Positions 5,104-50,488 of a DNA stretch of 64,000 bases are shown one piece after another; positions within the stretch are counted from its first letter, which is position 1, and the number at the start of each line of letters is the position of its first letter. A program made the translations under genes and the position numbers. Under the pieces are notes generated by a model. The model was not told the origin of the DNA, did not search any database, and was given only the letters and a program-made list of their open reading frames with translations. The DNA is from Bacteroidales bacterium (lineage in GTDB: Bacteria; Bacteroidota; Bacteroidia; Bacteroidales; P3), in NCBI GenBank assembly GCA_031257915.1, contig JAIRNR010000003.1, positions 7,670-71,669 of the forward strand, given 5' to 3'.

Positions 5104-5305
5104 AGGGCAAACCTTAAGTTTACAGTGAAATAAAAACTGGGGGTTAAATTTTTACTTTTGTTGTATTAAAGTAAGAAATTAACCAACTAACAGAGGTAAA
5201 CTATCAGGTATTTATAACACTTATTCTTTAATGAAAATTTATAAAGATTTGCGGTTGTAATTTATTTGTTATCAGCAAATAAACTTGTTTAAATGCGTTA
5301 GCCCT
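5104..5305. repeat. MITE-like repeat, long variant (arm AGGGCAAACCTTAAG at 5104-5118, inverted arm TTTAAATGCGTTAGCCCT at 5288-5305)
   Basis: The right-hand ~95 bp are about 85-90 percent identical by eye to the element at 37224-37332. The left arm matches the arms at 37765 and 50475. Confidence 0.6.
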
Positions 5306-5475
5306 GATCCTTTTGCGTTTCTTTGATATTTTTTATTCTTTTTTCATTATATTTGTTTTTTATTTGTATTACGAATAAGCAAAATCAAGCAAATATAAAA
5401 ATCAATACGCAAAATCAAACAAAAACAACCAAAAAAGCAAATAGTTTGTATTGTACATCAATTAATTATTTTATT

Positions 5476-5613
5476 ATGGAAACTCCACAACAGCGACTGG
5501 ATAAGGTTTTAGTCCATCGATAATAGCGATAGATGAATTTCGCTATTAGAGAATAAGGATAAACAGATAGACAGGATAATATCGCTACTTGAAAAAGCAC
5601 AAACTTTTAAATA
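5476..5613 (+). pseudogene. remnant of the XRE-like regulator gene (internal ~230-bp deletion removes the HTH)
   Basis: METPQQRLDKVLVH is identical in style to the 1377 gene, then reaches a premature stop. The 3' end (…LLEKAQ…K*) is retained out of context. Confidence 0.75.
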
Positions 5614-5614
5614 A

Positions 5615-6622
5615 ATGAATATGATAGCGTCAACACTGCAATCTCTCGCACAAAAATCGCGTGAGTATAACAGCTACATGAAAACAGAAGAGGCAACTAA
5701 AACGGTGCTTGTATTGCCATTCATCCAAGCGTTAGGATGGGATATTTTCAATCCTAAGGAATTAATACCCGAAATGGTTATAGATAAAAGGAAAGGCGAT
5801 AAGATTGATTATACCATAATGCTGAATGATAAACCCGCTATACTTATAGAATGTAAGCAGTGCGGCGCAAATTTATCACTGTATTACGGACAGATACGGA
5901 ATTATTTCTATATGTCGGAGGCAAGGCTTGGAATACTTACTAATGGGATAATATATCAATTTTACACCGACTTAGACAGAGATAACGTAATGGACGACAA
6001 ACCATTCTTTGAATTTAATTTATTGAATATGAGTAATAGCGATGTTGAATATCTCACACATTTTCAAAAAACAAAATTCAGTATAGATCATTTTGCGGAA
6101 TTAAAAACAATAAATACAATTAAACAGGTAGCGCAAAGGGAATTTAATAATCCAAGTCGCGAATTTGTGCAACTGCTCTGCCGGTCGGTATCCACATTCA
6201 CAGTGAAAGAGGCAGCGAAATATTCAGCGTTTGTGAAAATAGCGATAAACGACATTATTGGATGTGCTATTCCGCCACCGCGCCAATTAGAAGAAAAATT
6301 AATAAATATTAAATTACAGGCGTTTGACATAATAAAGTCCATTTTAAGTAAGATAGTTAACCCTGATGAGATGGCGTACAATGATAATATTTCTCATTTT
6401 TCAATACGCATAAACAGTGAGAAAAATATTAAAAAAGAATGGATATGCAGACTGTATTTTAATGATAATGGAAAACGAAACCTTGTCTTCAAGCTCGACC
6501 CAAATATCCCGCGCGTCGGAACGAACAATAGCAAGAAACTTGATAGCATAAAACTTAAAGATATTGATGACATAAGAAGATATTCCGACAGAATAATAAT
6601 GGAAGCCAAAAAATATATCTGA
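5615..6622 (+). CDS. HsdR-N-terminal-like (restriction endonuclease-fold) domain protein
   Basis: N-terminal TEEATKTVLVLPFIQALGWDIFNPKELIPEMVIDKRKGDKIDYTIMLNDKPAILIECKQ matches my recollection of the HSDR_N_2 / PD-(D/E)xK pattern (D...ExK). It occupies the slot that holds the 1760-2263 cargo gene in copy 1. Confidence 0.55.
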   Translation: MNMIASTLQSLAQKSREYNSYMKTEEATKTVLVLPFIQALGWDIFNPKELIPEMVIDKRKGDKIDYTIMLNDKPAILIECKQCGANLSLYYGQIRNYFYMSEARLGILTNGIIYQFYTDLDRDNVMDDKPFFEFNLLNMSNSDVEYLTHFQKTKFSIDHFAELKTINTIKQVAQREFNNPSREFVQLLCRSVSTFTVKEAAKYSAFVKIAINDIIGCAIPPPRQLEEKLINIKLQAFDIIKSILSKIVNPDEMAYNDNISHFSIRINSEKNIKKEWICRLYFNDNGKRNLVFKLDPNIPRVGTNNSKKLDSIKLKDIDDIRRYSDRIIMEAKKYI

Positions 6623-6624
6623 TT

Positions 6625-6973
6625 ATGAGAAAGGGCATGATATTTACATTCGTTGCAGCAACGTTATTGTTTGCCTGTGAAAAAGAGAAACCGCAAAAAG
6701 ATAAGCAACCTAATTATCTATACGGCACATATTGGCAGCAAGATTCGGTTGCTGCTGAACACTGCGAGTCAAACATTTTACACTGAGGGGTATTATCACA
6801 GGCAGATACATCCGTTTCGTAATGATTACACAAAAATTGATACGGCTTATCTCGGCGTATTAGATATACAGAAAGAGCGATTACGGAAATCTGTTACCAC
6901 GTATATAACGTTTTCTCCGTATGGCAGGAACATACAATATTGGCCATGGGTGTTCTACAAGAAAAAGCAATAA
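6625..6973 (+). pseudogene. frameshifted, internally deleted copy of the 2288-2794 lipoprotein gene
   Basis: The N-terminal frame MRKGMIFTFVAATLLFACEKEKPQKDKQPNYLYGTYWQQDSVAA stops. The C-terminal 70 aa (YYHRQIHPFRNDYTKIDTAYL...WPWVFYKKKQ) continue in another frame. Confidence 0.8.
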
Positions 6974-6989
6974 CGCAAGCCGATAAAAC

Positions 6990-7074
6990 GAAAAATGTAA
7001 AATTTTAATAACTTTGCCGTCAAATAAACTGTAATAAATCCTAACGAAGAAAGGGGCACAGTGCTGCTCCACAA
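6990..7074 (+). repeat. about 85-bp direct repeat, copy 2 (immediately upstream of prs)
   Basis: See 4146-4234. Confidence 0.8.
7009..7016 (+). promoter_or_regulatory. candidate prs promoter -7 box TAACTTTG
   Basis: TAnnTTTG consensus about 70 nt upstream of the prs start. Confidence 0.45.
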
Positions 7075-7085
7075 TCCTGTTATTT

Positions 7086-8027
7086 ATGGTAGAGTCAAAA
7101 GTCAAAATTTTTTCAGGTCGCGCATCACATTATTTAGCGGAAAAAGTCGCTTCCGCTTACGGTGCGAAATTAGGCAAGTCGGATGTTATAACATTCTCGG
7201 ACGGCGAGTTTCAAACATCTTTTGAAGAAAATGTTCGCGGAGACGATATTTTTATCGTTCAATCGACATTTTCGCCAACTGAAAATCTTTTTGAGTTGCT
7301 TATGATGATTGATGCGGCAAAACGCGCTTCGGCACGTAAAATTATAGCCATTATCCCTTATTTCGGCTTTGCCCGTCAAGACCGTAAAGATAAGCCGCGT
7401 GTGCCGATTACGGCAAAACTTATTGCAAATTTGCTTACTGTTGCGGGGGTTTCGCGTATTGTTACAATTGATTTTCACGCCGACCAGATTCAAGGATTTT
7501 TTGAAACTCCGGTAGATCATCTTTATTCATCCTCTCTATTTATTCCTTATCTGCGCAAGCAAAAAATAACCGATTTAATGTTCGCTTCGCCCGATACGGG
7601 AGGAACAAAGCGTGCCGCCCAGTATGCAAAAATTTTTGATACGGGTTTTGCGATTTGTTATAAGCAGCGTTCACGTCCCAATGTTGTAGATAAAATGGAG
7701 TTGATAGGTGAGGTTCAAGGGCAGAATGTTATTTTACTTGACGATATTCTTGATACAGGCAATACGATGGTTAAAGCCGCAGATCTTATCATGAAATACG
7801 GTGCGGCGAGTGTACGCGCAATGGTAACGCATCCTGTTCTTTCTGACGACGCTATTGAAAAAGTTGAGAAGTCGTCAATATCGGAACTTATCGTCAGCGA
7901 CACTATTCCGCTTCGCAGGAAAAGTGAAAAAATAAAAGTGCTTTCCATAGCAGATTTGCTTGCGGAAGTTATAATGCGCGTTGAGAATTGTCAGAGTATT
8001 TCCGATTTATACAGTTTTAAAAAATAG
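7086..8027 (+). CDS. prs: ribose-phosphate pyrophosphokinase
   Basis: KIFSGRASHYLAEKVA..., GEFQTSFEENVRGDDIFIVQS, ARQDRKDKPRVPITAKL and a DTGNT PRPP loop. 313 aa. Confidence 0.95.
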   Translation: MVESKVKIFSGRASHYLAEKVASAYGAKLGKSDVITFSDGEFQTSFEENVRGDDIFIVQSTFSPTENLFELLMMIDAAKRASARKIIAIIPYFGFARQDRKDKPRVPITAKLIANLLTVAGVSRIVTIDFHADQIQGFFETPVDHLYSSSLFIPYLRKQKITDLMFASPDTGGTKRAAQYAKIFDTGFAICYKQRSRPNVVDKMELIGEVQGQNVILLDDILDTGNTMVKAADLIMKYGAASVRAMVTHPVLSDDAIEKVEKSSISELIVSDTIPLRRKSEKIKVLSIADLLAEVIMRVENCQSISDLYSFKK

Positions 8028-8040
8028 CGGCATACGCGCT

Positions 8041-9597
8041 ATGAAACGAGTAACGGATTTTCTTGTTATCGGTACAGGCATTGCCGGATTAAGTTACGCA
8101 CTGAAAGTTGCTGACTATGGCGGCGTATTGCTTGTTGCGAAATCCCTTGCAGACGAGGGTTCGACAAACTATGCCCAAGGTGGTATAGCAGCTGTTGTAG
8201 ATGCACTTGATTCTTATGAAAAACATATTAAGGATACTCTTATTGCGGGTGACGGCTTATGTGATGAAGAAGTAGTTCGTTTCACGATCGAAGATTCTAC
8301 AGAGCGGATAAAAGAACTTGTCGGTTATGGTGCGCAGTTTGACAGAAAGCGTTCCGGAGAATTTGACCTTGCAAGAGAGGGCGGACATTCCGAACATCGC
8401 GTACTTCATCATAAAGACCGTACCGGACAGGAAATAGAGCGTATTTTATTGGAAAAAGTGCGGCAGCATCCGAATATAAGTTTACTTGAAAATCATTTCG
8501 CGATTGATATTATTACGCAACATCATTTGGGAGTTGAAGTGAATCACCGCACACCCGATATTCGCTGTTATGGTGCTTATGTGCTTGATTTAAAAGAAAA
8601 TCGTATAGATACTTTTCTTGCAAAAACTACAATGCTTGCAACAGGGGGCAACGGAAACGTTTACGCGACAACAACAAATCCCATTGTTGCCACCGGCGAC
8701 GGCGTGGCTATGGTACATCGTGCAAAAGGTACTGTTAGAAATATGGAATTTATCCAGTTTCATCCCACATCGTTATACAATCCGGGTGAAAAACCGTCGT
8801 TTTTAATTTCCGAAGCAGTACGCGGTGCGGGTGCGCGGCTCTGCAACCTGAAGACTGAATATTTTATGGCGAAATATGATAAACGTCTTGAACTCGCTCC
8901 GCGCGATATTGTTGCTCGTGCCATTGACAACGAAATGAAGATCACAGGGGACGACCATGTTTATCTTGACTGTCGCGGTATTTCCAAATATACATTGCTG
9001 CAACATTTTCCAACCATATATGCAAAATGTCTTTCAACAGGTATTGATATAAGTAAGGAACTGTTGCCTGTAGTGCCTGCCGCTCATTACAGTTGCGGTG
9101 GTATTGTGGTAGATGAAAATGCGTGTACGAGTATTGAGAGATTATATGCTTCGGGTGAATGTTCCTGTACAGGACTGCATGGAGCAAACCGCCTTGCGTC
9201 CAATTCGCTTTTGGAAGCACTTGTATTTTCGCACAGGGCATATCTGCATGCCGTAGAAGTAGTGCGTGATACCGAAATTTGCAGTGATATTCCCGAATGG
9301 AATTCCGAAGGCATGGTGCTTAATGAGGAAATGATTTTGATAACGCAGAGTTTGAAAGAAGTGCAGACGATTATGTCAAGTTATGTCGGTATTGTACGCT
9401 CTAATCTTCGTTTGAAACGTGCGTTTGACCGCCTTGCAATTATTCACCGCGAAACGGAGGCACTCTACAATCGCAGTGTACATTCGGTAGCACTTGCCGA
9501 ATTGCGCAATCTCATCAAAATCGGATACCTTATAATAACGATGTCAATGGAACGCAGGGAAAACAGAGGTTTGCATTATAATGTTGATAACAGATAG
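8041..9597 (+). CDS. nadB: L-aspartate oxidase
   Basis: FAD-binding DFLVIGTGIAGLSYA, YAQGGIAA, HPT, and a fumarate reductase/succinate dehydrogenase-type flavoprotein layout. Start set at the MKRVTDF Met. Confidence 0.92.
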   Translation: MKRVTDFLVIGTGIAGLSYALKVADYGGVLLVAKSLADEGSTNYAQGGIAAVVDALDSYEKHIKDTLIAGDGLCDEEVVRFTIEDSTERIKELVGYGAQFDRKRSGEFDLAREGGHSEHRVLHHKDRTGQEIERILLEKVRQHPNISLLENHFAIDIITQHHLGVEVNHRTPDIRCYGAYVLDLKENRIDTFLAKTTMLATGGNGNVYATTTNPIVATGDGVAMVHRAKGTVRNMEFIQFHPTSLYNPGEKPSFLISEAVRGAGARLCNLKTEYFMAKYDKRLELAPRDIVARAIDNEMKITGDDHVYLDCRGISKYTLLQHFPTIYAKCLSTGIDISKELLPVVPAAHYSCGGIVVDENACTSIERLYASGECSCTGLHGANRLASNSLLEALVFSHRAYLHAVEVVRDTEICSDIPEWNSEGMVLNEEMILITQSLKEVQTIMSSYVGIVRSNLRLKRAFDRLAIIHRETEALYNRSVHSVALAELRNLIKIGYLIITMSMERRENRGLHYNVDNR

Positions 9598-10024
9598 ATG
9601 TGTGTGTTGTTAATGGAGCTGCGAGCGAGGCTTGCAACAATTGTGATATAAGTAAAATAGAAAATCGTAATTTAGAACAAATTTTTAATAATCAAAACGT
9701 ATGTAGAATTATAATCCGTAATACGGATAATGAAATAAATAGATAAATAGGGCTTTACGCTTTTATTCTCACTGTTAGAAACGTCCAAATTTCAAAAAGT
9801 GGTTGAGATAAGAGTGCGAAAGTTCGCGTTTTTAAGGCGTGAACTGTTTCGTAACTTGTTTGACCATAAAGGTATGGACACCTCTAACAGCAAACAGGTA
9901 AGAAATGGCTTCACGTCTTTTTTTGCCAAAAAGTTTAAGAGTTTGAAGTTCTGCAAACCCTTGAACTATGATAATAAAGGCAAATAAAAATTCCAATCTA
10001 TTCTCTCAAAATAATGAAAATAAA

Positions 10025-11442: not shown

Positions 11443-11540
11443 ACAAATCAGGATTTTGATTATCTTGATATGATAAAGCCCATCACTGCTATCTGCTAAT
11501 TCCGTTAGTTTTATTTTACTGTTATGTATCTCAACCTCCC

Positions 11541-13010
11541 TCACAACTTCCTGCGGGAATGGGCAAAAACAAACCCGCCGTTAACAAGTTCGTAATTCTT
11601 ATTTACATGAATCTTCCTGAATGTAACCTTTACACCCGTGTTCGCCAACAAGGGAATATTAGTGTATCCGGTACCGCTGAAAATACCGTTTTCGCCTGTA
11701 ACATCTTCAATAGAAATAATAAGTCCGCTTGCTGTTTTGACTTTATCAAAGCGATGTAAAATAAAAAGTGAGTCGGTTGCCCGCTCAATTTCAGTAACCA
11801 TCTCTCCACAATTATTTTCAGTTGCTTTATTCGGAAATCTTGTATAAAAAGTTATAACAGGATCATTTTCGCTAACCGCGCCGCTGCCTTCAAAAGCGCA
11901 TGTTGCGGATATTTTACACTCGTATTCCGTACCATTTTCCAGATTGCCGATTTCGGTAAAATCATCTGTGTTGCCGAGCGGCATAGAAAACCATTGCCGG
12001 TCTTTTTTTCTGTAAGAAAGAGTGATAAACGCCGCATTAGCAGAAGGTGTCCATTGAAGTAAGGCACTGTTTTCCGAAGGAGCGGCAGTTAAATTTTTTA
12101 CTCCGATACATCGTTCCTTAATAGAGAAAGTTCTTATTTCGCTATAACCGTTATTTTTTAGAATAAGTTCCTCGCCGCCGGCACTGAAACATTGCGCCCT
12201 GACTCTGTACGCACAGGTGCTTCCTGTTTCTAAAAGCGCATTATTGTTGTCAAAATAACAGTATGTATTGTTTGTTTCCGTTTCGTAAATGCGGGGAAAT
12301 GTATTGAAATACGAATTGATATTTGAAGAAAAATTTTTAGGTACCTGTACAATTTCAAGTGTATATCTGTTATCGGTAAAGCCTGCGGCAGAGCCAATAT
12401 GACGTGGTGTCCAGCGAAAGAAAAATTGCAACGGCACATCTGCATAGAAAACTTCGTTCTGCGCAGGACTTGTGAGAATCGGCGGATCAGGAGAATGAAA
12501 ATAAAATCGTGAAGATATTTCTGTGCGTGATACTTTCGTTCCCGAATAATATTCATACACCTCAAAACGCAGTGTGTAGTTGCCGTCAGGTAAAGAATTT
12601 CCGTTTTTTTGATAATCAGTAAAAGAATACCCTTTAAATGACAAATTTGATAATGAGAAAAACGGCATAAGATCTTCGGTATGGAGTATTTTATCCTCGC
12701 CGCCTTTGATATTCACAGGAATTGAAAGAGGTGCGGGATTTTCAATTTTTCCGTTCGCACCATTTGAAAACTCAAGAACCATTTTTATTTTTACTGTCGC
12801 GTTTGCAACATTTACATCAAGCATTGAAAGGTGCACTTCTATATTGTTTTCACCGGGTATCGCCCATTTTTCAATATTTCTTGACAATTTGGAATACGTT
12901 ACTGTTTGGCTGCGCACAGGTGAAATAATATTTTGCGCACTTGTAAAAAATGGTGCAAGCACAAGTGTTATTATCAAGTAGATGTTAAACTTTTGACATG
13001 TTCGTTTCAT
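11541..13010 (-). CDS. secreted protein with a fibronectin type III-like module
   Basis: Signal peptide ...APFFTSAQN. FN3-like stretch NLTAAPSENSALLQWTPSANAAFITLSYRKK...GTEYECKISA. ATGA overlap with the upstream gene. Confidence 0.6.
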   Translation of the reverse strand: MKRTCQKFNIYLIITLVLAPFFTSAQNIISPVRSQTVTYSKLSRNIEKWAIPGENNIEVHLSMLDVNVANATVKIKMVLEFSNGANGKIENPAPLSIPVNIKGGEDKILHTEDLMPFFSLSNLSFKGYSFTDYQKNGNSLPDGNYTLRFEVYEYYSGTKVSRTEISSRFYFHSPDPPILTSPAQNEVFYADVPLQFFFRWTPRHIGSAAGFTDNRYTLEIVQVPKNFSSNINSYFNTFPRIYETETNNTYCYFDNNNALLETGSTCAYRVRAQCFSAGGEELILKNNGYSEIRTFSIKERCIGVKNLTAAPSENSALLQWTPSANAAFITLSYRKKDRQWFSMPLGNTDDFTEIGNLENGTEYECKISATCAFEGSGAVSENDPVITFYTRFPNKATENNCGEMVTEIERATDSLFILHRFDKVKTASGLIISIEDVTGENGIFSGTGYTNIPLLANTGVKVTFRKIHVNKNYELVNGGFVFAHSRRKL

Positions 13011-15370
13011 AATGAAATTATTTTAATGGTTTTTGTTGATGTTTTATTATTTTCGGCAGTTGCGGTGATTAGTAATATATATGTTCCCGAAGAAAATTTT
13101 TCAGATTCAACAGGCAAATATGTTCTTTCATTTGCACGTAGAAAAAGACTGCTGTAAACAGATTGCTGTCCGGTGGCGATATTATAGACTTTAATATTTA
13201 CGGAAGCGTTAATTCCGGTTTCTATTTCTAATACGCTTTCGGACGTAATCGGCTGCGGATACACACTTGCATAGTTGATAATTGAGAAAGATGATTTTTG
13301 TTCGGGGTATTTTTGCTGCGGCATATTTACAATTACGGATACTTCTTTTTCGGCGACACAATTATAATAATACCCAAACATTCCTACTTTAAAAATTCCC
13401 GTATCATTGAATTGCAGTTCAAGTTCGTGATAGTCTTCATAGCGCAGTTCCGCCTCAGGTGGAAATGTCCACAATATACTGTCGAAGCGGGTTAAGGAAA
13501 CATTTACTGCAAGTCCGATGTCGTAAAGCGTAAATTCGGAACAGAGCCAAAAATCGGCGGCAATGCTGCTGTCGCAAGGTATGAGTGTATCAATGGGTGG
13601 CGTGACTGTGGTGTCCGGTGGTGTAACAATGGTGTCGGGCGGTATGACGATAGTGTCCGGTGGTATGACGATAGTGTCCGGTGGTGTAATAATAGTATCG
13701 GGTGGTATAACGATAGTGTCCGGCGGTGCAACGATGGTATCGGGTGGTGCAATGATAGTGTCGGGCGGTATGACAATAGTATCAGGTGGTATAATGACAG
13801 TGTCCGGTGGTGCAATGATAGTGTCCGGCGGTATGACAATAGTATCAGGTGGTATAATGACAGTGTCCGGTGGTGTAATAATAGTATCGGGTGGTATGAC
13901 AATAGTATCCGGCGGTGCAATGATAGTATCAGGTGGTATAATGACAGTGTCCGGTGGTGCAATAATAGTATCGGGTGGTATGACGATAGTGTCCGGTGGT
14001 GTAATAAGAGTATCGGGTGGTATAACGATAGTGTCCGGCGGTGCGACGATGGTATCGGGTGGTGCAATGATAGTGTCGGGCGGTATGACAATAGTATCAG
14101 GTGGTATAACAATAGTGTCCGACGGTGCAACAATGGTATCGGGTGGTGTAATAATAGTGTCCGGCGGCACAATGACAGTGTCCGGCGGTGCAACAATAGT
14201 GTCCGGCGGTATAATGACAGTATCCGGCGGTACAACAATAGTATCCGGCGGCACGACAAAAGTATCCGGTGGTGTAATAATCGTATCGGGCGGCACGACA
14301 ATAGTATCCGGTGGTATAACAACAGTGTCCTGTGGTTTAACAGAAGTGTCCGCTTCAACTTTTATTCTGCTCGAAGAAACAAGCCCTGTACGCTGTCCGT
14401 ATCCGATAGCATAGTATTCACCCGCCCCTGCGTCATAAAGAAAATTTTCCAAACCACTTTTAAGTAATACGCCGTTTTTGTACCATTCGACAAACAGCAC
14501 TTCAGGTTTATTATATTGCACAATGGAAAGATGGGCATCGCTGACATTCGCGTCCGAAAGCGGTTTATCAAGTGAAATGCCTATATGTAATGTGTCAGGC
14601 GAAATCATAATAGTGTCGTGAATATCCAAGGAACAGCCGTTATTATCCCATAAGGTAAAAACTATCGGCATCTGGCAACCAAAATATATTGTATCGTAAG
14701 AACTTTCAAGACCCAATTCTTTGTATAAAATTTCGTATGGCGGCGTTCCGTTCTTAATACTTTCAAAATCAAAAGCAAAAAATGCACTCCTGCCGCTTTC
14801 CCATTCCCCGTCAAAAAATTGCATTCCTGAAATATCTTTTTTTGTATATGATATTTCCATTTTTGCAACAGAATTGATAACAAATTCAAGCCATAATTCG
14901 CCTTCCATACGAAAAAATCCATTATTAAAATGATATGAAGCAAATAGCATGTAATCTCCGGGCGGCAATGAAAAGAAACCGAAAGTTGCGTATGACTCGC
15001 TTGTTGCGGTATAATGATTCGGAATATATTCCGTAAATCCGATAGAATCACTGTGCTGCAAATAAAAAGTAAAAGATTCCGGCGGATTATTATCCAAAAC
15101 ATGTTTATTTATCGTTAATATCATATTTCCCGATTGAGATTCACTCCAGCAAACAGGGTCATACGTTCTTATTGAATAGGGTAAAGACAGAGTCTTTGTT
15201 TGCGGCGTCTGCGTTGATAAGTTGTGCGTAAATTTATCGTATTCGGGTAAAGTCTGCGGGGATAAATCATGCCCGAATGAATTACATGCTGACAAAGCAT
15301 ATACAGGTGAAGTGAATACCGGCAAAAGTAAATTGCAAAAAATCAGTGTTGAGAATAAAAAGTGTTTCAT
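13007..15370 (-). CDS. T9SS cargo protein with about 35 tandem PPDTIVI heptads, a PKD-like module and a Por C-terminal sorting domain
   Basis: Signal peptide. The C-terminal ~85 aa (VYPQPITSESVLEIE...IKVYNIATGQQ...SGTYILLITA...KTIKIISL) fit the T9SS CTD pattern (YPNP...G.Y...K). Confidence 0.8.
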   Translation of the reverse strand: MKHFLFSTLIFCNLLLPVFTSPVYALSACNSFGHDLSPQTLPEYDKFTHNLSTQTPQTKTLSLPYSIRTYDPVCWSESQSGNMILTINKHVLDNNPPESFTFYLQHSDSIGFTEYIPNHYTATSESYATFGFFSLPPGDYMLFASYHFNNGFFRMEGELWLEFVINSVAKMEISYTKKDISGMQFFDGEWESGRSAFFAFDFESIKNGTPPYEILYKELGLESSYDTIYFGCQMPIVFTLWDNNGCSLDIHDTIMISPDTLHIGISLDKPLSDANVSDAHLSIVQYNKPEVLFVEWYKNGVLLKSGLENFLYDAGAGEYYAIGYGQRTGLVSSSRIKVEADTSVKPQDTVVIPPDTIVVPPDTIITPPDTFVVPPDTIVVPPDTVIIPPDTIVAPPDTVIVPPDTIITPPDTIVAPSDTIVIPPDTIVIPPDTIIAPPDTIVAPPDTIVIPPDTLITPPDTIVIPPDTIIAPPDTVIIPPDTIIAPPDTIVIPPDTIITPPDTVIIPPDTIVIPPDTIIAPPDTVIIPPDTIVIPPDTIIAPPDTIVAPPDTIVIPPDTIITPPDTIVIPPDTIVIPPDTIVTPPDTTVTPPIDTLIPCDSSIAADFWLCSEFTLYDIGLAVNVSLTRFDSILWTFPPEAELRYEDYHELELQFNDTGIFKVGMFGYYYNCVAEKEVSVIVNMPQQKYPEQKSSFSIINYASVYPQPITSESVLEIETGINASVNIKVYNIATGQQSVYSSLFLRANERTYLPVESEKFSSGTYILLITATAENNKTSTKTIKIISL
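13590..14335 (-). repeat. 21-bp tandem repeat array (about 35 units) encoding PPDT[IV][IV]x
   Basis: Plus strand reads GGTGG(T/C)(A/G)T(A/G)ACNATAGTGTCCGGTGG... repeatedly. Higher-order 63-bp periodicity is visible (IVI/IIA/VII triplets). Confidence 0.9.
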
Positions 15371-18750: not shown

Positions 18751-18764
18751 AATATAAAAACTGT

Positions 18765-22418: not shown

Positions 22419-22420
22419 TT

Positions 22421-32375: not shown

Positions 32376-32380
32376 AATAG

Positions 32381-35906: not shown

Positions 35907-37220
35907 ATGAAGATTACGATAGTAGGAACAGGCTATGTAGGTCTTGTGACAGGTGTATGTTTTGCCGAAGTAGGCATTGACGTTTGTTGTGTTGATGTTG
36001 ATAAAGAAAAAATAGTCAAATTAAAAAAGGGTATCTCACCCATCTATGAGCAGGGTTTGGAGGAAATGCTGCTCAATAATATTGAAAGAGGGCGGATTAC
36101 TTTTTCCGATTCTCTGAAAGAGGGGATGAAAGATGCGGAAGTTATTTTTTCTGCCGTAGGCACTCCGCCTGACGAAGACGGCAGTGCGGATTTGCGCTAT
36201 GTTCTTGATGTCGCTCACGAGATAGGGCGCAATATGAACGAATACGTTCTTGTTGTAACAAAAAGTACCGTTCCTGTCGGTACTGCCGAAAAAGTACGTG
36301 TGGCAATAGAAGAAGAACTTACTGCAAGGGGTGTTGATATTAAGTTTGACATTGCATCAAATCCCGAATTTTTAAAAGAAGGTACGGCAATAAATGATTT
36401 TATGTACCCTGAAAGAATTGTTGTCGGCGTAAGTTCTATTCGCGGACAGGAAGTAATGGCACGTCTTTACAAACCGTTTACTCTTAATGGTCATCCTATA
36501 ATTTTTATGGATATTCCGTCTGCCGAAATGACCAAATATGCCGCGAACTCAATGCTTGCAACCCGAATCAGTTTTATGAACGACATTGCTAATTTGTGCG
36601 AACTTGTGGGAGCTGATGTTAATGCAGTGCGTAAGGGTATAGGTAGCGATACTCGTATAGGCAGTAAATTTTTATACCCGGGTATTGGCTATGGGGGCAG
36701 TTGCTTTCCGAAAGATGTGAAAGCACTTATTAAAACTGCTTCCGACAACAATTATAAAATGGGGGTTTTGTCTGCTGTTGAGGAAGTGAATGAAACGCAG
36801 AAATCGCTGATGTTTCATAAATTTATGGCTCACTTTGACGGTAAAGTTAAAGGTATGACCGTTGGTTTTTGGGGTTTGGCATTTAAGCCCGGCACGGACG
36901 ACATGCGTGAAGCACCATCGCTTGTAATGATAGAAAAACTTCGTAAGGCAGGTGTCAATATACGTGCATACGATCCTGTATCAATGCCCGAAAGCAAACG
37001 CCGCATAGGTAATGCAATTACATATTGTAAAGATATGTATGAAACGGCTTATAAGGTAGATGCACTTTTCCTGATTACCGAGTGGACAGAGTTTCGTTTT
37101 CCGGACTGGAAAAAAATTGCTTCTAATTTAAAAAACAAAGTGTTTTTTGATGGTCGCAATCTCTACGAGAAAAAAGAACTGCAACAGGAAGGATTTACTT
37201 ATTACGGCGTTGGGTTGTAG
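35907..37220 (+). CDS. ugd: UDP-glucose 6-dehydrogenase
   Basis: MKITIVGTGYVGLVTG Rossmann fold, catalytic GYGGSCFPKD, and the C-terminal UDP-binding domain. Confidence 0.93.
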   Translation: MKITIVGTGYVGLVTGVCFAEVGIDVCCVDVDKEKIVKLKKGISPIYEQGLEEMLLNNIERGRITFSDSLKEGMKDAEVIFSAVGTPPDEDGSADLRYVLDVAHEIGRNMNEYVLVVTKSTVPVGTAEKVRVAIEEELTARGVDIKFDIASNPEFLKEGTAINDFMYPERIVVGVSSIRGQEVMARLYKPFTLNGHPIIFMDIPSAEMTKYAANSMLATRISFMNDIANLCELVGADVNAVRKGIGSDTRIGSKFLYPGIGYGGSCFPKDVKALIKTASDNNYKMGVLSAVEEVNETQKSLMFHKFMAHFDGKVKGMTVGFWGLAFKPGTDDMREAPSLVMIEKLRKAGVNIRAYDPVSMPESKRRIGNAITYCKDMYETAYKVDALFLITEWTEFRFPDWKKIASNLKNKVFFDGRNLYEKKELQQEGFTYYGVGL

Positions 37221-37223
37221 TTG

Positions 37224-37332
37224 CAGGGCTAACGCGTTTATAATGCTTATTCTTGATGAAAATTTATAAAAATTTGCGTTTGTAATTTATTCGTTATCAA
37301 CAAATTAACTTGTTTAAATGTGTTGACCCTCG
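37224..37332. mobile_element. MITE-like element (~105 bp) with imperfect 17-18 bp terminal inverted repeats and a 9-bp target duplication
   Basis: Arms AGGGCTAACGCGTTTATA (37225-) and TTTAAATGTGTTGACCCT (-37330). TTGTAGTTG flanks both ends (37215-37223 and 37333-37341). No ORF inside. Confidence 0.7.
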
Positions 37333-37387
37333 TTGTAGTTGAAATTTCAAATAAAAACAAGTATCTTTGTATGAGATTTCAAATATT

Positions 37388-37708
37388 ATGGTGCAAAAGA
37401 ATGACACTTTTTCTTTACGTCTAAAAAAAATAATGCCTGAAGTTGGTGAGAATATTAAACTGGCACGGCTTCGGCGGGGGTTTTCTGCGGCACTTATAGC
37501 CGAGAGAGCAAACATAGCAACATCAACATTATGGCTAATTGAAAAGGGTAGCGGAAGCGTATCTTTTGGAAGTTACGCAAAAGTACTGTTTGTTCTCGGA
37601 TTAGAAAAAGATTTGCTGCACCTTGCAAAAGACGACATACTTGGAAGAAAATTGCAAGATGCAGAGATATTAACCAAAAAACGTGCGCCAAAACGAATGA
37701 TTGTATGA
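37388..37708 (+). CDS. XRE-family HTH regulator, HipB-like (orphan)
   Basis: VGENIKLARLRRGFSAALIAERANIATSTLWLIEKG is an HTH_3 motif. A TATCTTTG box lies about 25 nt upstream. Confidence 0.75.
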   Translation: MVQKNDTFSLRLKKIMPEVGENIKLARLRRGFSAALIAERANIATSTLWLIEKGSGSVSFGSYAKVLFVLGLEKDLLHLAKDDILGRKLQDAEILTKKRAPKRMIV

Positions 37709-37753
37709 AGAAGTTGCAGAATAATGTACCCCAATTTTAAGATCAATAGTCAA

Positions 37754-37783
37754 GGTTGACCCTGAGGGCAAACGCATTTAAAA
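37754..37783. repeat. back-to-back repeat arms GGTTGACCCT-G-AGGGCAAACGCATTTAAAA
   Basis: A right-arm core is joined to a left arm with a single-nt spacer. It ends 1 nt before the vapC stop codon. Confidence 0.65.
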
Positions 37784-37784
37784 T

Positions 37785-38180
37785 TTACAGTAATTGCAGT
37801 CCGCTTATTCTCTTAAAATGATTTTTATTGAAAGTGACTATCGGTAAGTTACTATAGACAGCAGTAGTGGCAATAAATAAATCATTTAGTTCTATTATTT
37901 GGTTTGCTCTTTTCAGATTTTGATATATGTTTGCTGATAAGATTGCTATTTCAGAATTAAAAGGGATTTGTTTTATTATATTAAATAATGTGTCCCAAAA
38001 TTCTGTTTCCTGTTCATTTTTTATTCCATTAAATATTTCAAAAACGGTAATTGTAGAAATGGCAAGATTGTAATTGTCAATTAATTCTGTTAGCAAAGCT
38101 TTATCTTTATTTGACTTGCGGTAATAATCAATAAAGATGGAAGTATCTACGAGTATATCTTTGCTGTCCATCTTTTCCAC
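37785..38180 (-). CDS. vapC: PIN-domain toxin VapC
   Basis: ILVDTSIFIDY (Asp1), VFEIFNG (Glu), LNDLFIATTA (Asp), and a TFN tail. 131 aa. Confidence 0.85.
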   Translation of the reverse strand: MEKMDSKDILVDTSIFIDYYRKSNKDKALLTELIDNYNLAISTITVFEIFNGIKNEQETEFWDTLFNIIKQIPFNSEIAILSANIYQNLKRANQIIELNDLFIATTAVYSNLPIVTFNKNHFKRISGLQLL

Positions 38181-39571: not shown

Positions 39572-39579
39572 GGGAGGAT

Positions 39580-39728
39580 TGCGGGTCAAGCCCGCGATGA
39601 CGACGCTAAGCCCGCAATGACGGGATGTTAAGCCCGCGATGACGGCGTCAAGCCCGCGATGACGGCGTTAAGCCCGCGATGACGGCGTCAAGCCCGCAAT
39701 GGCAGGATGTCAAACCCGCAATAACGAC
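39580..39728 (+). repeat. GC-rich intergenic tandem repeat, 7 units of 20-22 bp (AAGCCCGCRATGRCGGSRTY)
   Basis: The units begin at about 39587, 39607, 39629, 39649, 39669, 39689 and 39711. The first is preceded by the inverted GCGGGTC, forming the hairpin GCGGG-tcaa-(g)CCCGC. Confidence 0.9.
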
Positions 39729-39760
39729 CATTGGGCGCAAAATTTATAAACGGATAAAAA

Positions 39761-41698: not shown

Positions 41699-42134
41699 TT
41701 AGAACCACGTTAATATATACCTCGTCAGCCTCTTCAATTTCAACTGTTTTGTTCTCGTATAAACCGTTTTCCGTGCTGTCTATATCATCAAAGAAAACAG
41801 TCTCGCTCCATCCCCGTCCTTCAATTGATGTATTAAAAGAAAAATATCCGTGATTATCGGTAACTGTGCAACTGTCCGAATAACGGTTATAAGAAGTATC
41901 TCTTTGATAATAATATCCAAACGATACTTTTATCCCTTCTATGCCCCGATTATTTTTATTAGAAACAACTCTGCCTTCAACCAAAGCATTAGGAAAAGCG
42001 GCAGGCACTCCATAGCATGCCTGAAATATAAACATTGCAGTAGTTAAACTGAATCCTTTAAGCACATTGCTTATAATCTTTCTACATTTTTGTTTCACAC
42101 CGCTAATATACGAATTATTTTCGCAAAGCCTCAC
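41667..42134 (-). CDS. putative lipoprotein with a carboxypeptidase-regulatory-like beta-sandwich, partner of the radical SAM enzyme
   Basis: Lipobox FIFQAC. EGRVVSN..GIEGIKVS...TVTDNHGYFSF is CarboxypepD_reg-like. The real start may be the GTG at about 42098. Its 3' end overlaps the rSAM start by 32 nt. Confidence 0.6.
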   Translation of the reverse strand: MRLCENNSYISGVKQKCRKIISNVLKGFSLTTAMFIFQACYGVPAAFPNALVEGRVVSNKNNRGIEGIKVSFGYYYQRDTSYNRYSDSCTVTDNHGYFSFNTSIEGRGWSETVFFDDIDSTENGLYENKTVEIEEADEVYINVVLNEIEQDSTSF

Positions 42135-43404
42135 TCATAGAAATTCTTTTTCCGTTTTTAAATGCAACAACAAATGCATCACGAAACCCCTTTGCCTGAA
42201 TTTCCTGTAATAAATTCTTTGCTTGCGAAAGGTCTGTTTCCTCGCCGCTGCAATACTTGTAAACACCGTTTTCCTGATACTTGCTTATATTTTGCAGCAC
42301 ATTAAATTCGGGCGAGTTAAGCGGTTTATTTATAGATGACGAAGCGAATTGCACTTTGAAAATAATTGTTTCTGCGGCAGGTGTGGTTGCGGGCGCATTT
42401 GTAGTTTGGGCAGCAGGTGGGATTGTAGTTTGGGTCGCAGGTGGGGTTGCGGGTGCATTTGTAGTTTGGGCAGCAGGTGGGATTGTAGTTTGGGTCGCAG
42501 GTGGAGTTGTTGTCTGGGTCGCAGATGGAGTTGTGGTCTGGGTTGCAGGCGCAATTGTGGTCTGGGTAGCAGATGGGGTAGCAGATGAAATAGCAGAACT
42601 AACCCCCGCTTGATTTCCGAATCCTTCAACTTGATATTTATACTCCCTGAAAGCATTTAAAAGCGAAATTGCAATTTTGTCCTGTCCGTCGGCAGAACTT
42701 AAAAATTCTTCCTCTTCAGGATTGCTGATAAATCCGATTTCAGTAAGGACAGATGGCATCGTACACCCCCAAAGAACGACAAATCCTGCTTGAAAAACAC
42801 CGCGATTCGGCGTATTTAACAGAGTGCCGTACTGTTTTTGAATTTTTTGTGCAAAACTTAGACTTTGGTCTAAGTAGGCATTTTGGTACATTGAAAAAAT
42901 TATATAGGCATCGGGCGAATTGGGGTCGAAACCATTATAATTTTTTTCATAGTTTTGTTCTTCAAGAATAGCGGCATTTTCTTTTCGCGCGACATTTAAA
43001 TTCAAATCACTTTTGTGAAGCCCCATAACCCATGTTTCAACTCCACGCGTAGCAGTATTGTTTTCTACGGCATTGCAATGAATGGAAATAAATAAGTCGG
43101 CATTATTTCTGTTTGCAATTTTACTGCGTTCGCGCAGTTCTATATCCCTGTCATCCTTACGAGTATAAATAACCCGCACGTCTGAAAAGTTCTGCTGCAC
43201 GAGTGTACCGAATTTTAACGCAACTGCAAGCGCAATATCTTTTTCTTTACTCTTTTTTCCGACCGTACCCGGTTTATCACCTCCATGTCCTGCGTCAATT
43301 ACAAGCGTCTTAACGCTTTTCGTATTTTGAGAAAATCCGCATAAAGGCAATAATGCGAAAAAAATCAATCGAATAAAATATGTTTTCTTGAAAAAAAATT
43401 CCAT
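42115..43404 (-). CDS. N-acetylmuramoyl-L-alanine amidase (Amidase_3) with a Thr/Pro/Ala-rich linker and a C-terminal SPOR domain
   Basis: VIDAGHGGDKPGT, SIHCNA, ETWV. The C-terminal FKVQFASS...AKGFRDAFVVAFKNGKRI is SPOR-like. Confidence 0.9.
   Translation of the reverse strand: MEFFFKKTYFIRLIFFALLPLCGFSQNTKSVKTLVIDAGHGGDKPGTVGKKSKEKDIALAVALKFGTLVQQNFSDVRVIYTRKDDRDIELRERSKIANRNNADLFISIHCNAVENNTATRGVETWVMGLHKSDLNLNVARKENAAILEEQNYEKNYNGFDPNSPDAYIIFSMYQNAYLDQSLSFAQKIQKQYGTLLNTPNRGVFQAGFVVLWGCTMPSVLTEIGFISNPEEEEFLSSADGQDKIAISLLNAFREYKYQVEGFGNQAGVSSAISSATPSATQTTIAPATQTTTPSATQTTTPPATQTTIPPAAQTTNAPATPPATQTTIPPAAQTTNAPATTPAAETIIFKVQFASSSINKPLNSPEFNVLQNISKYQENGVYKYCSGEETDLSQAKNLLQEIQAKGFRDAFVVAFKNGKRISMSEALRK
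42375..42590 (-). repeat. in-frame tandem repeats encoding (P/A)PATQTT(I/T) units, including a ~60-bp perfect-looking duplication
   Basis: GCATTTGTAGTTTGGGCAGCAGGTGGGATTGTAGTTTGGGTCGCAGGTGG occurs twice in tandem (about 42395-42510). Confidence 0.85.
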
Positions 43405-45712: not shown

Positions 45713-45713
45713 T

Positions 45714-45749
45714 GTAAAAAAACGGCAGGGTATATAACTACACCCTGCC
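45714..45749 (-). terminator. rho-independent terminator after gap
   Basis: The minus strand reads CGGCAGGGTGTAGTTATATACCCTGCCG followed by a T run (T6; the next three bases are ACA). Confidence 0.7.
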
Positions 45750-45772
45750 GATTATGAAGAAACAATCAAAAT

Positions 45773-46798
<1,026 letters not shown>

Positions 46799-46860
46799 TT
46801 AGTTATAACCTGTCAAAGAGGTGTGCAAAGATACGAATATCTTTGTAAATTTGCACATAT

Positions 46861-48357
46861 ATGGGTATAGTTATACGTCAGAGTATTAAAGGCACTGTTG
46901 TTACATACACCGGTGCATTTATCGGCTTTATCAGCACACTTTTCATCTTTACGCACCTGCTTACGCCTGAGGAAATAGGCTTGCAGCGCATTATCATTGA
47001 AGCAGGTCTTATGCTCGGTGGTTTGGCACAACTCGGAACATCAAGTTTGGGCATTCGTTTTTTTCCACATTTTAAAAGTGAGGACGGGAAAAATAATGGT
47101 TTTTTACTTTATCTCGCCACATTCCCATTATTCGGCATTTTATTTTTCTTTACTGCTTTTCTCGTTTTTAAAGTTCCTGTGAGTAATTATTTCAGTGAAA
47201 ATTCGGAATTATTTATTGACTACTATTACTACATATTTCCTCTTGCTGCTGCTTACGTATATCAAATTGTTTTTTCCACTTATGCAAATTCGTTAATGCG
47301 CATTGTGGTACCTCGTATTACGCAGGAGATTCTTATAAGATTAGTACTTTTGGCAGGCGTACTGCTTTATCATTTCAAGATAATCAGTTTAGACGGACTT
47401 GTTTTGAGTACGGTTATAGCATATATGCTTGCAATGCTTGTTAATTTTTTCTATCTGTTCAAAATCGGTACCGTATCTTTCAGGCGTACAAAAGGATTTG
47501 TTACTCCGGAATTGCGGAACAAAATGATAAATTATATGCTGTATCTTTTGGCAATATCGCTGATGGGGATTTTGTCGTCAAGAATAGATATTTTTATGGT
47601 GAGTGCTAAAATAGGACTTGCTTTTACTGCTGTCTATAGCATTGCTTATTACGTTGCGGCAATTATTGAAATGCCTTCGCGTTCGGTGTCGGCAATAGTT
47701 TCGCCGATTATTGCCGCAGCAATAAAAGAAGACGACAAAAAAACACTCAAAACAATTTACGATAAAGTCGCAATAAATCAGTACCTGTTCGGTATGCTGA
47801 TTTTTTTGGTATTGTGGATTAACATTGACAATTTATTCTCCTTTATTCCCAATGGTGATTTTTACAACCAGGGCAAATACGTAGTACTTTTTATAGGTTT
47901 GTCAAAACTTGTTGAAGCGGCATTTTCTTTAAGCAGCACTATTCTTTCGTATTCAAAATATTATCGTTATTCGGTTTTGTTTACGATTATTTATGGAGTA
48001 GCAATTGTTTTATCAAATAACTGGCTTATCCCTGCTTTAGGTATAACAGGTGCAGCCGTTGCTTCTCTTGGAGTGATATTTATTTTTCGTCTTTTTTATA
48101 CGCTTTTTGTCTGGTATAAATCAAAGGTTCACCCTTTCAGCTGGGAGTTGCTTTTAATTTCGGGTATGTTGTTATCGGGTATATGTATAGATATGCTATT
48201 ACCTGAATTACAAAATATTTATTTGGATGCATTTATACGTACGGTTACGGTTATGGGCTGTATTTGTGCGATAATTTATTTTACAAAAATTTCTGTAGAA
48301 GTAAACAGTATAATTGACAGAGTATTGAAAACAGTAAGACGCTATATTAAACGATGA
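46861..48357 (+). CDS. MOP-superfamily polysaccharide/oligosaccharide flippase (Wzx-like)
   Basis: 498 aa with about 14 predicted TM helices and typical N-terminal basic/Gly-rich loops. TATCTTTG / TAAATTTG boxes lie directly upstream. Confidence 0.7.
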   Translation: MGIVIRQSIKGTVVTYTGAFIGFISTLFIFTHLLTPEEIGLQRIIIEAGLMLGGLAQLGTSSLGIRFFPHFKSEDGKNNGFLLYLATFPLFGILFFFTAFLVFKVPVSNYFSENSELFIDYYYYIFPLAAAYVYQIVFSTYANSLMRIVVPRITQEILIRLVLLAGVLLYHFKIISLDGLVLSTVIAYMLAMLVNFFYLFKIGTVSFRRTKGFVTPELRNKMINYMLYLLAISLMGILSSRIDIFMVSAKIGLAFTAVYSIAYYVAAIIEMPSRSVSAIVSPIIAAAIKEDDKKTLKTIYDKVAINQYLFGMLIFLVLWINIDNLFSFIPNGDFYNQGKYVVLFIGLSKLVEAAFSLSSTILSYSKYYRYSVLFTIIYGVAIVLSNNWLIPALGITGAAVASLGVIFIFRLFYTLFVWYKSKVHPFSWELLLISGMLLSGICIDMLLPELQNIYLDAFIRTVTVMGCICAIIYFTKISVEVNSIIDRVLKTVRRYIKR

Positions 48358-48905
48358 TTTTCTTTTCATTATTTTGGGCATTTTTTAAAATCGGACTTTT
48401 CGGTTTCGGTGGCGGATATGCAATCTTACCAATGATACAAAACGAAGTTACCGTACGTCATAACTGGATTGATGCGGTGCAATTTTCCGATATGATTGCA
48501 ATTTCACAAACAACTCCGGGACCTGTAAGCATAAATTGTGCAACATACACAGGATACATTGTAACTTATGGCATTTATGATTCTTATGTGCTCGGCATTG
48601 CAGGCTCTGTTTTGGCAAGTGCGGCACTGTGTTTACCGTCGTTGCTTGTAATTTGGGGCATATTGGCGTTGCTGGTGCGTTACCGCAACAATCGTTTCGT
48701 TATAAATATTTTTTCAATACTGCGGATAGTTGTTTCGGGTTTGATATTTGCTGCTGCAATGCTTCTTGCAACGCCGAATACATTTGCCGATATATGGAGT
48801 GTTGTAATTTGCGCCGCTTCGTTTTTAATATTGTTTTTTTTCAAAAAAGTCAATCCGATATTATTGATTATTATATCGGGTGTGGCGGGTGTGTTGATAT
48901 ATTAG
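48354..48905 (+). CDS. chromate-transporter (CHR) family protein, single-domain type
   Basis: FGGGYAILPMIQNEVV...ISQTTPGPVSIN is the CHR motif. ATGA overlap with the upstream gene. Confidence 0.8.
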   Translation: MIFFSLFWAFFKIGLFGFGGGYAILPMIQNEVTVRHNWIDAVQFSDMIAISQTTPGPVSINCATYTGYIVTYGIYDSYVLGIAGSVLASAALCLPSLLVIWGILALLVRYRNNRFVINIFSILRIVVSGLIFAAAMLLATPNTFADIWSVVICAASFLILFFFKKVNPILLIIISGVAGVLIY

Positions 48906-48908
48906 ATT

Positions 48909-49781
48909 ATGATTTTTTTTCCACATGCAAAAATAAATATAGGGTTGCAGGTACTGCGCAAGCGTGAAGACGGTTTTCACGACCTCTCACTGTCGTTTGT
49001 TCCGCTTTGGGATTTACACGATATTCTTGAAATTATACCTGCCGAAAAGGACAGTTTTAAAGTTATAAACTGTTCGGATATGCCTGCTTTGGGAAGCGGT
49101 CATACCGATAATCTTGTTGTCAAGGCACGTGATTTATTGCGCAGATATGCAGATATTCCTCCCTGTGCAATTTATTTATACAAACATATTCCAATCGGTG
49201 CGGGTCTTGGCGGGGGCAGCAGCGACTGTGCATATACTCTGCACGGATTAAACAAAGTGTTTTCGCTCGGATTTTCTATTGATGAATTACAAAACCATGT
49301 TCGTCTGCTCGGCAGCGACTGTGCATTTTTTTTAGAAAACGGAAAGCGGATTGCAAACGGCAGGGGAGATTATTTTACAGCATTTGAACGATGTACGCCT
49401 GCAAATATTTACGATGTTGTTGTTATAAAGCCGTCTTTTTCCATATCCACCGCAGAGGCATACGAAAGCGTAATACCTGATGCAAATCGTCCCTCTCTCA
49501 CGGAGTTTTTGCGTCTGCCGCTTGAGCAATGGCGGAATAATATAGAAAACGATTTTGAAAAGTTTTTGCGTGAGAAATATCCGCAAATAGAGGAAATAAA
49601 AAACGAACTGTACGAAAAAGGTGCTTTATATGCTTCGCTGAGTGGCAGCGGGTCTGCAATCTACGGAATTTTTGAACATGGGTGTTCGCCCCGCTTTAAT
49701 GCTGCAATAACGGCTGACGCTACCTCTGCAATTCCTGCGCTTGCGGGGTGTCGGATTTTTTATTGTTTTTTGGAGATATGA
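48909..49781 (+). CDS. ispE: 4-(cytidine 5'-diphospho)-2-C-methyl-D-erythritol kinase
   Basis: AKINIGLQVLRKREDGFHDL and the GHMP motif IPIGAGLGGGSSDCA. Confidence 0.9.
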   Translation: MIFFPHAKINIGLQVLRKREDGFHDLSLSFVPLWDLHDILEIIPAEKDSFKVINCSDMPALGSGHTDNLVVKARDLLRRYADIPPCAIYLYKHIPIGAGLGGGSSDCAYTLHGLNKVFSLGFSIDELQNHVRLLGSDCAFFLENGKRIANGRGDYFTAFERCTPANIYDVVVIKPSFSISTAEAYESVIPDANRPSLTEFLRLPLEQWRNNIENDFEKFLREKYPQIEEIKNELYEKGALYASLSGSGSAIYGIFEHGCSPRFNAAITADATSAIPALAGCRIFYCFLEI

Positions 49782-49842
49782 GGTTTTGTTGAAGAAAATA
49801 TTCTTTTCGTAATGATCTGATCGTTTATATTGATTTTTGATT

Positions 49843-50256
49843 TTATGCAGATTCTGCTCCTTTATAGTGTTTGGCTGCCCATGAAATTACATACTTTCCT
49901 TCATCCATTGCTGTTTGAACAATTTTATAGCTCAAAACACCATCATAGCCCAAAGTAAGATGTAACAAGTCGTATGCCGTTTTAAGAGTTCTCGGCATTT
50001 TTTTATCTTTTTTATTAAGTGCATCAAGATAATCCTTAATGTCGGGACGTTGTTTTGGTTTTAAATTTTTACGAACAGGCAATACGCCGTCAAGCGCAAT
50101 AAGTACGCCTTTCCAAGCGGTATCGCCCGCCATTCTAACATATTTAGGATCGTTATAATAACCGCCGTCTTTCTCGGCTTTCGTAGATAAAATTTCACGA
50201 GCATTATCTAAATAACGTTGCGCCTCTTTAATCGGATTTTTGTGAACTGTTGCCAT
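49843..50256 (-). CDS. small all-helical protein (DUF5618-like by recollection), accessory
   Basis: MATVHKNPIKEAQRYLDNAREIL...HLTLGYDG is a four-helix, HEPN-like pattern. AT-rich. The family name is recalled from memory only. Confidence 0.45.
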   Translation of the reverse strand: MATVHKNPIKEAQRYLDNAREILSTKAEKDGGYYNDPKYVRMAGDTAWKGVLIALDGVLPVRKNLKPKQRPDIKDYLDALNKKDKKMPRTLKTAYDLLHLTLGYDGVLSYKIVQTAMDEGKYVISWAAKHYKGAESA

Positions 50257-50330
50257 AGATTTATTATTTTCAATTTCACACGAAGTTAGTAAAAAACTCA
50301 ATATTCTTATTCAGAGCTCTTCACCCGGCC

Positions 50331-50463
50331 AGGGTCAACGCATTAAAATTTTAATTCCCTTATTTACAGATGTTTATAAATCTAATTTTTACCAAATTAT
50401 GAAATATTTCTATATGTAACTTGCTGATTAACACTATTGTATAATTTTTAATGCGTTGACCCT
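50331..50463. mobile_element. MITE-like element (133 bp) with perfect 18-bp terminal inverted repeats AGGGTCAACGCATTAAAA
   Basis: Left arm at 50331-50348 and right arm at 50446-50463 are exact reverse complements. (CT)CTTCACCCGGC lies outside both ends (50317-50329 and 50462/4-50474). The interior is AT-rich with no ORF. Confidence 0.75.
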
Positions 50464-50474
50464 CTTCACCCGGC

Positions 50475-50488
50475 AGGGCAAACCTTAA
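50475..50488 (+). repeat. solo repeat arm AGGGCAAACCTTAA
   Basis: Identical to the arm at 5104-5117. It lies 11 nt after the right end of the 50331-50463 element. Confidence 0.6.

Follow-up and report, generated by a model that had tools for sequence, protein, structure and literature searches.

What is the short repeat that recurs beside small accessory genes in this stretch of Bacteroidales DNA, and does it bring those genes with it? The stretch, called the window throughout, is 64 kb of a metagenome-assembled genome of an uncultured Bacteroidales bacterium. It contains nine arms of a motif beginning AGGGYNAAC, which an initial annotation had read as the ends of non-autonomous miniature inverted-repeat transposable elements (MITEs) that mark, or possibly mediate, the insertion of accessory genes. 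Our analysis indicates, with a probability of about 0.88, that the motif is the terminal inverted repeat of MITEs derived from insertion sequences (IS) of the ISAs1 family. Two observations carry this assignment: perfect 10-bp target-site duplications flank two of the three complete elements, and their ends are identical to those of transposase-bearing ISAs1 elements in other genomes. A repeat that had been unexplained is thereby placed in a named transposon family.

All nine reported arms are present in the window:

AGGGYNAAC arms on the plus strand, starting at 5104, 37225, 37765, 50331 and 50475
AGGGYNAAC arms on the minus strand, at 5297–5305, 37322–37330, 37755–37763 and 50455–50463

The motif is strongly over-represented. 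AGGGYNAAC has 11 matches in the window against 2.0 expected, a count reached by none of 100 shuffled sequences; nine of these matches are the arms above and the other two, at 6356 and 48127, are both intragenic and look like chance. Longer patterns behave in the same way, with six matches to the 14-mer AGGGYNAACVCRTT (0.87 expected) and seven to the 19-mer CAGGGYNAACGCATTWAAA at up to three mismatches (0.40 expected), six of the latter being arms and the seventh, at 43119, a chance match. The termini are real as had been described but start one base farther out, at C or G before AGGG: CAGGG opens the arms at 5103, 5306 (minus), 37224, 37764 (minus), 50330 and 50474, and GAGGG the remaining ones. 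Three arms, at 5103 (plus), 37764 (minus) and 50474 (plus), belong to a second terminus subtype, CAGGGYMAACCTTRA, which we call the CCTT subtype. The look-alike TAGGGCTTTACGC at 9749–9767, formerly listed as a weak member of the family, has neither CAGGG nor AAC nor a partner arm, and we rejected it as a chance resemblance.

Six of the arms pair into three complete elements, which we name A, B and C, and three further ends are solo or truncated, so that multiple copies are dispersed over the 64 kb. With their flanking duplications they are as follows:

5103–5306, plus strand: MITE A, 204 bp, with hybrid ends
37214–37223, no strand: left target-site duplication copy of B, GTTGTAGTTG, matching 37332–37341 at 10/10 positions
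37224–37331, plus strand: MITE B, 108 bp, with ends CAGGGCTAACGCGTTTATAA and GAGGGTCAACACATTTAAAC
37332–37341, no strand: right target-site duplication copy of B, GTTGTAGTTG
37725–37764, minus strand: solo or truncated CCTT-subtype terminus, CAGGGTCAACCTTGACTATTGATC... read leftwards, directly after the hipA stop codon
37764–37784, plus strand: solo canonical terminus, GAGGGCAAACGCATTTAAAAT, tail-to-head with the preceding arm and immediately before the vapC stop codon
50320–50329, no strand: left target-site duplication copy of C, TTCACCCGGC, matching 50465–50474 at 10/10 positions
50330–50464, plus strand: MITE C, 135 bp, with CAGGGTCAACGCATTAAAA... ends
50465–50474, no strand: right target-site duplication copy of C, TTCACCCGGC
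50474–50520, plus strand: truncated CCTT-subtype terminus, CAGGGCAAACCTTAATATC..., with the leftover final codons of a Pyr_redox (lpd-like) gene after it

The description of three AT-rich elements that are bounded by inverted arms and lack open reading frames (ORFs) was accurate. Their G+C fractions are 0.28 (A), 0.29 (B) and 0.26 (C) in a window of 39% G+C, the longest stop-free stretch in any of them spans 25–34 codons, and all three are well within the size of roughly 600 bp below which noncoding elements are classed as MITEs. The perfect 10-bp duplications around B and C would each arise by chance with a probability of about 1e-6. The left copy at B includes the TAG stop of the UDP-glucose dehydrogenase gene, and the last base of the right copy at C doubles as the first base of the terminus at 50474. 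At C the two terminal repeats agree in 20 of 22 bases. In both B and C, pairing of the terminal repeats gives a hairpin (z = -3.3 for B and -5.0 for C), as expected for MITEs. Taken together with the differences between strains described below, these features bear out the proposal that the repeats are non-autonomous transposable elements.

The termini, which the initial annotation had not recognized as belonging to a named IS family, are canonical ISAs1 ends. The ISAs1 family (ISAs1 of Aeromonas salmonicida, ISArsp11, the Escherichia coli H-repeat/ISEc1 group; NCBIfam NF033564) has inverted repeats of 14–22 bp that start with CAGGG and generates 10-bp direct repeats (PMC11946415); ISArsp11 has the left inverted repeat CAGGGCTGATGCAAAGTCG and a 10-bp direct repeat (PMC6305408). 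The window termini have this length and this start, the window end CAGGGCTAACGCA is like CAGGGCTAATGCA of ISArsp11, and the duplications of B and C, unlike the flanks of A, have the 10-bp length. The window elements differ from members of the family in measuring only 108–204 bp and in encoding nothing.

We scanned the GTDB representative genomes with CAGGGYNAACGCRTTWAAA, a 33-bit pattern, and obtained at least 119 stretches in many phyla, many of them at contig ends. Those listed come from Bacteroidota, Methylococcales, cyanobacteria, Desulfobacterales, Riflebacteria, Chlamydiota, Verrucomicrobiota and others, with no locus from the window's own species among them. By our own estimate the number of matches is near the chance level, on the order of 100 being expected, so the evidence lies in the context of the matches and not in their number. 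At all ten loci tested (L005, L002, L022, L027, L108, L008, L110, L039, L102 and L006), the ORFs that adjoin the terminus on its inner side encode NF033564 ISAs1 transposases, with E values of 1e-95 to 1e-130; these transposase-bearing loci belong to Bacteroidia, Flavobacteriia, cyanobacteria and other groups. One of them, in Bacteroidia bacterium MS499-65 (L027), is an IS that shares its 19-nt terminus exactly with C. A transposase-encoding copy with the same termini, for which a search had been suggested, was thus found, but in other genomes and not in the window.

Among the matches listed, four full-length elements have both ends. Three of these (L033, L039 and L110) are 1231–1267 bp long with 10/10 duplications, and the fourth (L005) is 1480 bp long with a duplication match of only 4/10; the transposase was confirmed in L005, L039 and L110. 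Nine short ORF-less elements of 144–485 bp in the same set also have 10/10 duplications (L028, L041, L057, L062, L064, L077, L098, L099 and L120; hosts in Bacteroidia, Flavobacteriales, Chlamydiota and Verrucomicrobiota), which brings the elements elsewhere with these termini and perfect 10-bp duplications to 12, and five more of 129–594 bp have 9/10 duplications. The distribution of ISAs1-derived MITEs with 10-bp duplications thus appears broad across phyla, with Bacteroidota, Chlamydiota, Verrucomicrobiota, Methylococcales and others represented. In a separate scan of metagenome contigs, 109 stretches matched the 18-mer AACTTGTTTAAATGYGTT from the MITE interior; not one runs into a ..CCCT terminus, and we rejected these as further copies or as a parent IS, considering them chance matches.

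Several points weigh against the ISAs1 assignment or narrow it. MITE A has no target-site duplication and its two ends are mismatched with each other. The CCTT-type ends, present in three copies (CAGGGYMAACCTT), were met in no other fetched locus, and they agree with the originally reported consensus in the first 10 bases only, so that their link to ISAs1, made on those same 10 bases, would be a tentative one. The interiors of the MITEs are not common to any IS found, the match to other genomes being confined to the termini. Moreover, there is no autonomous ISAs1 copy in the window or in the few available contigs of the organism, so mobilization in trans and any current activity are matters that we infer. 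Finally, the closest thing to an empty site, in the relative L121, is not cleanly isogenic, as the downstream DNA differs.

The most reasonable sequence of events under the ISAs1 reading is that a DDE transposase of this family, acting in trans, would bind the CAGGG-starting ends over about 19–22 bp and that the element would then be inserted through a 10-bp staggered cut, an outcome directly visible in the duplications at B and C. Similar copies would subsequently serve as substrates for recombination or gene conversion, as the between-strain alleles at a single site suggest, and could in this way have given rise to the hybrid element A and to the L123 allele described below. The overlap of the C duplication with the end at 50474, together with the abutting ends at 37764, may also reflect a tendency to insert beside existing ends.

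As a class, MITEs derived from insertion sequences are already well established, and Correia elements in Neisseria and RUP in Streptococcus pneumoniae are bacterial examples. Another is provided by the MaeMITEs of Microcystis (PMC2779907). The window elements are like these in being under 600 bp, noncoding, AT-rich, multicopy and intergenic, in having terminal repeats, duplications and hairpin folds, and in breaking short-read assemblies; they differ in their parent family, ISAs1. The literature that we searched contained no explicit description of ISAs1-derived MITEs.

Comparison of orthologous loci in relatives, which the initial annotation had called for, revealed polymorphism at the B site and at the junction of A. 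The B site lies in the interval between the UDP-glucose dehydrogenase and epimerase genes. In L121 (96% protein identity) no element follows the dehydrogenase stop codon and a sigma-70_r2 gene takes the place of hipB/vapBC, and in L122 (87%) neither the element nor an accessory gene is present at the B site. L237 and L123 (95–99% DNA identity) keep the insertion site of B and its duplication, with alleles of 134 bp and 155 bp, respectively. Over its left half, the L123 allele shares 96.5% identity with window 37765–37851, a segment that consists of the solo terminus and 65 nt of the vapC 3' end; these 65 nt are the genuine vapC 3' end because the VapC C-terminus that they encode, LPIVTFNKNHFKRISGLQLL, is typical of PIN proteins. 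The L123 allele points to conversion or recombination between two direct-orientation termini 1.9 kb apart. Three independent contigs break inside elements (L001 within B, L240 and L239), and these repeats disrupt metagenome assemblies. The elements mark strain-variable hot spots in this uncultured Bacteroidales population and offer homologous sequence through which nearby sites can recombine or undergo conversion.

In L237 and L238 an intact hipA is followed by the tail-to-head pair of ends and then by vapC, the CCTT arm at 37725–37764 being conserved in both strains. We had considered this arm as the breakpoint that truncated hipA in the window and rejected the idea, since the strains with intact hipA carry the arm after the stop codon. 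In the window, hipA is internally deleted at 37702–37724, so that 11 codons of it remain and the hipB-like helix-turn-helix gene is an orphan; a 420-aa HipA is retained in two other strains (842–2104 in L237). The hipBA and vapBC operons are adjacent regardless of the elements. MITE B lies 57 nt upstream of hipB and C about 20–70 nt upstream of the DUF5618 gene, and effects of B and C on the promoters of these genes are possible.

The third locus lies upstream of rsfS. In the relatives rsfS is preceded, at a distance of 25 bp, by a Pyr_redox (lpd-like) gene (L236), a methyltransferase gene and a partner gene are intercalated between the Pyr_redox gene and rsfS (L234), or a DUF1016 fragment lies upstream of rsfS (L235); none of the three has a MITE at this site. 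About 45 nt inside the terminus at 50474 are the last codons of the Pyr_redox gene and a block shared with L236 at 17 of 17 nt. Since the window has no Pyr_redox gene elsewhere, a break in synteny coincides with the end at 50474. In L124 (90%; 2180–2330) the UDP-glucose dehydrogenase gene lies tail-to-tail with GHMP kinase and chromate-transporter genes, an arrangement that corresponds to a ~12.5-kb inversion of window ~37.3–49.8 kb with breakpoints at the B and C loci. With no elements at these places in L124, this coincidence of breakpoints with MITE loci is no more than suggestive. For the GHMP kinase protein, a look-up of exact matches returned no record.

MITE A probably has a more complicated history. 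Its neighbors are a YafQ toxin pair on one side and an HSDR_N-like gene on the other, within an integrase-associated island whose two modules are partial duplicates of each other. The homology between the modules begins exactly at the right end of A, where a small gene is cut to ~14 codons. The left end of A is of the CCTT subtype (CAGGGCAAACCTTAAG) and its right end canonical (CAGGGCTAACGCATTTAAAC), with the right 78 nt being 88% identical to B. In L239 a C-type element, 94% identical to C, occupies the exact left junction of A. The hybrid ends, the missing duplication, the L239 element and the edge of module homology together suggest that A is most likely the product of recombination or deletion between two copies.

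Do the elements, then, deliver the accessory genes? The claim that they occur only at core/accessory junctions does not hold, as MITE A is inside the island and related MITEs elsewhere are found between housekeeping genes, for example glycerate kinase and NAPRTase (L077) or glutathione peroxidase and peroxiredoxin (L114). Nor is a role as mediators of accessory gene insertion supported: the duplications show that B and C entered intergenic DNA as simple units of 108 bp and 135 bp, and no gene-containing interval in the window is bounded by two ends with a duplication. In relatives, the same two hot spots harbor the other accessory genes noted above (sigma-70_r2; methyltransferase and partner; DUF1016 fragment) with no MITE, and among the neighbors of MITEs in other genomes a toxin-antitoxin domain was detected in none of the 20 ORFs tested. 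The association with accessory genes concerns three loci, too few for statistics. We therefore do not regard the elements as the vehicle that delivered the toxin-antitoxin and restriction-modification genes. Their co-location is most readily explained if intergenic regions that are permissive and prone to rearrangement collect the elements and such genes alike, and the result leaves the view of accessory-gene acquisition unchanged.

The vapBC neighborhood invites a different account. Mobile insertion cassettes (MICs), or transporter IS, are made of terminal repeats and passenger genes with no transposase, the IS231-derived MICs of Bacillus cereus being an example, and by analogy ISAs1-type ends could carry toxin-antitoxin genes (for instance as IRL-vapC-vapB-...-IRR, where IRL and IRR are the left and right inverted repeats), the MITEs being deletion derivatives of such cassettes. 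A canonical terminus does abut the vapBC operon, 21 nt from the vapC stop codon at 37785–37787, and is kept there in three strains; the L123 allele holds this terminus with genuine vapC sequence, and the interior of the B/A type is weakly similar to the terminus-vapC stretch. The resemblance to MICs ends there, for beyond vapB there is no right-hand terminus above noise and no interval that holds genes is surrounded by a duplication, while B and C, as short units, are flanked by perfect ones. A homologue search found vapC at 90% identity or more at this one locus only, in three samples, the L123 allele is more simply explained by conversion between two termini, and the hot spots of relatives hold other accessory genes with no termini. 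We consider cargo cassettes of this kind improbable. Barely less so is a broader version in which toxin-antitoxin operons, vapBC for one, travel in cassettes defined by the ends, the MITEs are products of deletion or conversion, insertions target existing ends and the hot spots are reshuffled; we judge it unlikely.

Two other explanations do without transposition and fare considerably worse. That the motif might be a generic intergenic signal (a terminator, an operator or a palindrome like the repetitive extragenic palindromes and bacterial interspersed mosaic elements, REP/BIME) is suggested by the intergenic position of every copy, by the capacity of inverted arm pairs to form hairpins and by the placement of one pair between the convergent hipA and vapC genes. 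At that very junction, however, the pair at 37764 has no significant fold on either strand (z = +0.3) and there is no G+C-rich stem followed by a run of T, while an Rfam search of the window returned tRNA only and no family covering the motif. Perfect 10-bp duplications, ends shared with transposase-bearing ISAs1 elements, and presence/absence and allele differences between strains contradict such a signal, which we regard as very improbable. An equally faint prospect is that the arms are sites of site-specific recombination flanking cassettes, either integron attC-like sites or att sites of the tyrosine integrase encoded at 2742–4079. The arms are imperfect inverted repeats beside neighbors that resemble cassettes, namely toxin-antitoxin pairs and small genes with no known function, the ...YNAAC / GTTNR... 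pattern vaguely recalls the R''/R' cores of attC, and an integrase gene is present in the window. Yet distances of 32 kb and 13 kb separate the loci, with no cassette array and no IntI-type gene beside the arms, and GGCTAAC and GGTCAAC fail the core consensus RYYYAAC/GTTRRRY at position 2. The sole integrase is of the Phage_integrase/SAM_5 type and sits in a separate island with its own 78-nt repeats, and 10-bp duplications from staggered cuts are marks of transposases, not of tyrosine recombinases. ISAs1-derived MITEs therefore remain the reading that we prefer.

Other repeats in the window and in the compared loci are distinct from this family. The integrase modules (1225–2799 and 5329–6978) are 80–90% identical and lie just upstream of prs (7086–8027). 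The second integrase is truncated (6653–6973), and a 78-nt direct repeat (4143–4220 and 6987–7064; 94% identical) is unrelated to the motif. The modules and these repeats have the appearance of integrative elements, arranged in tandem or decayed, that carry att-like repeats. A GC-rich tandem repeat at 39585–39728 with the unit AAGCCCGCGATGACGGCGTT in ~5.6 copies, and with additional periods of 42 and 62, takes up the interval between two epimerase genes, a spacer of only 43 bp in L121. The dehydrogenase-epimerase spacer of L122 (5590–5900) contains GC-rich direct repeats of ~75 nt (...ataatccctaacgcaagcccccgcac...gacttcattgcgaagca) that represent a different repeat family in the same hot spot. 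Periodic sequence is also found in frame within two minus-strand ORFs, with periods of 21/42/63 nt at 13596–14352 in a 787-aa ORF (13007–15370) and of 24/60 nt at 42377–42576 in a 429-aa ORF (42115–43404), the latter homologous to an Amidase_3 gene in L122. Lastly, rsfS itself (50614–51255) contains, at 51001–51170, ~14 copies of the 12-nt repeat GCAACGAAAACC, which encodes the (ATKT)n low-complexity tail of the ribosome silencing factor RsfS, a protein of 97–214 aa in relatives with a tail of variable length.

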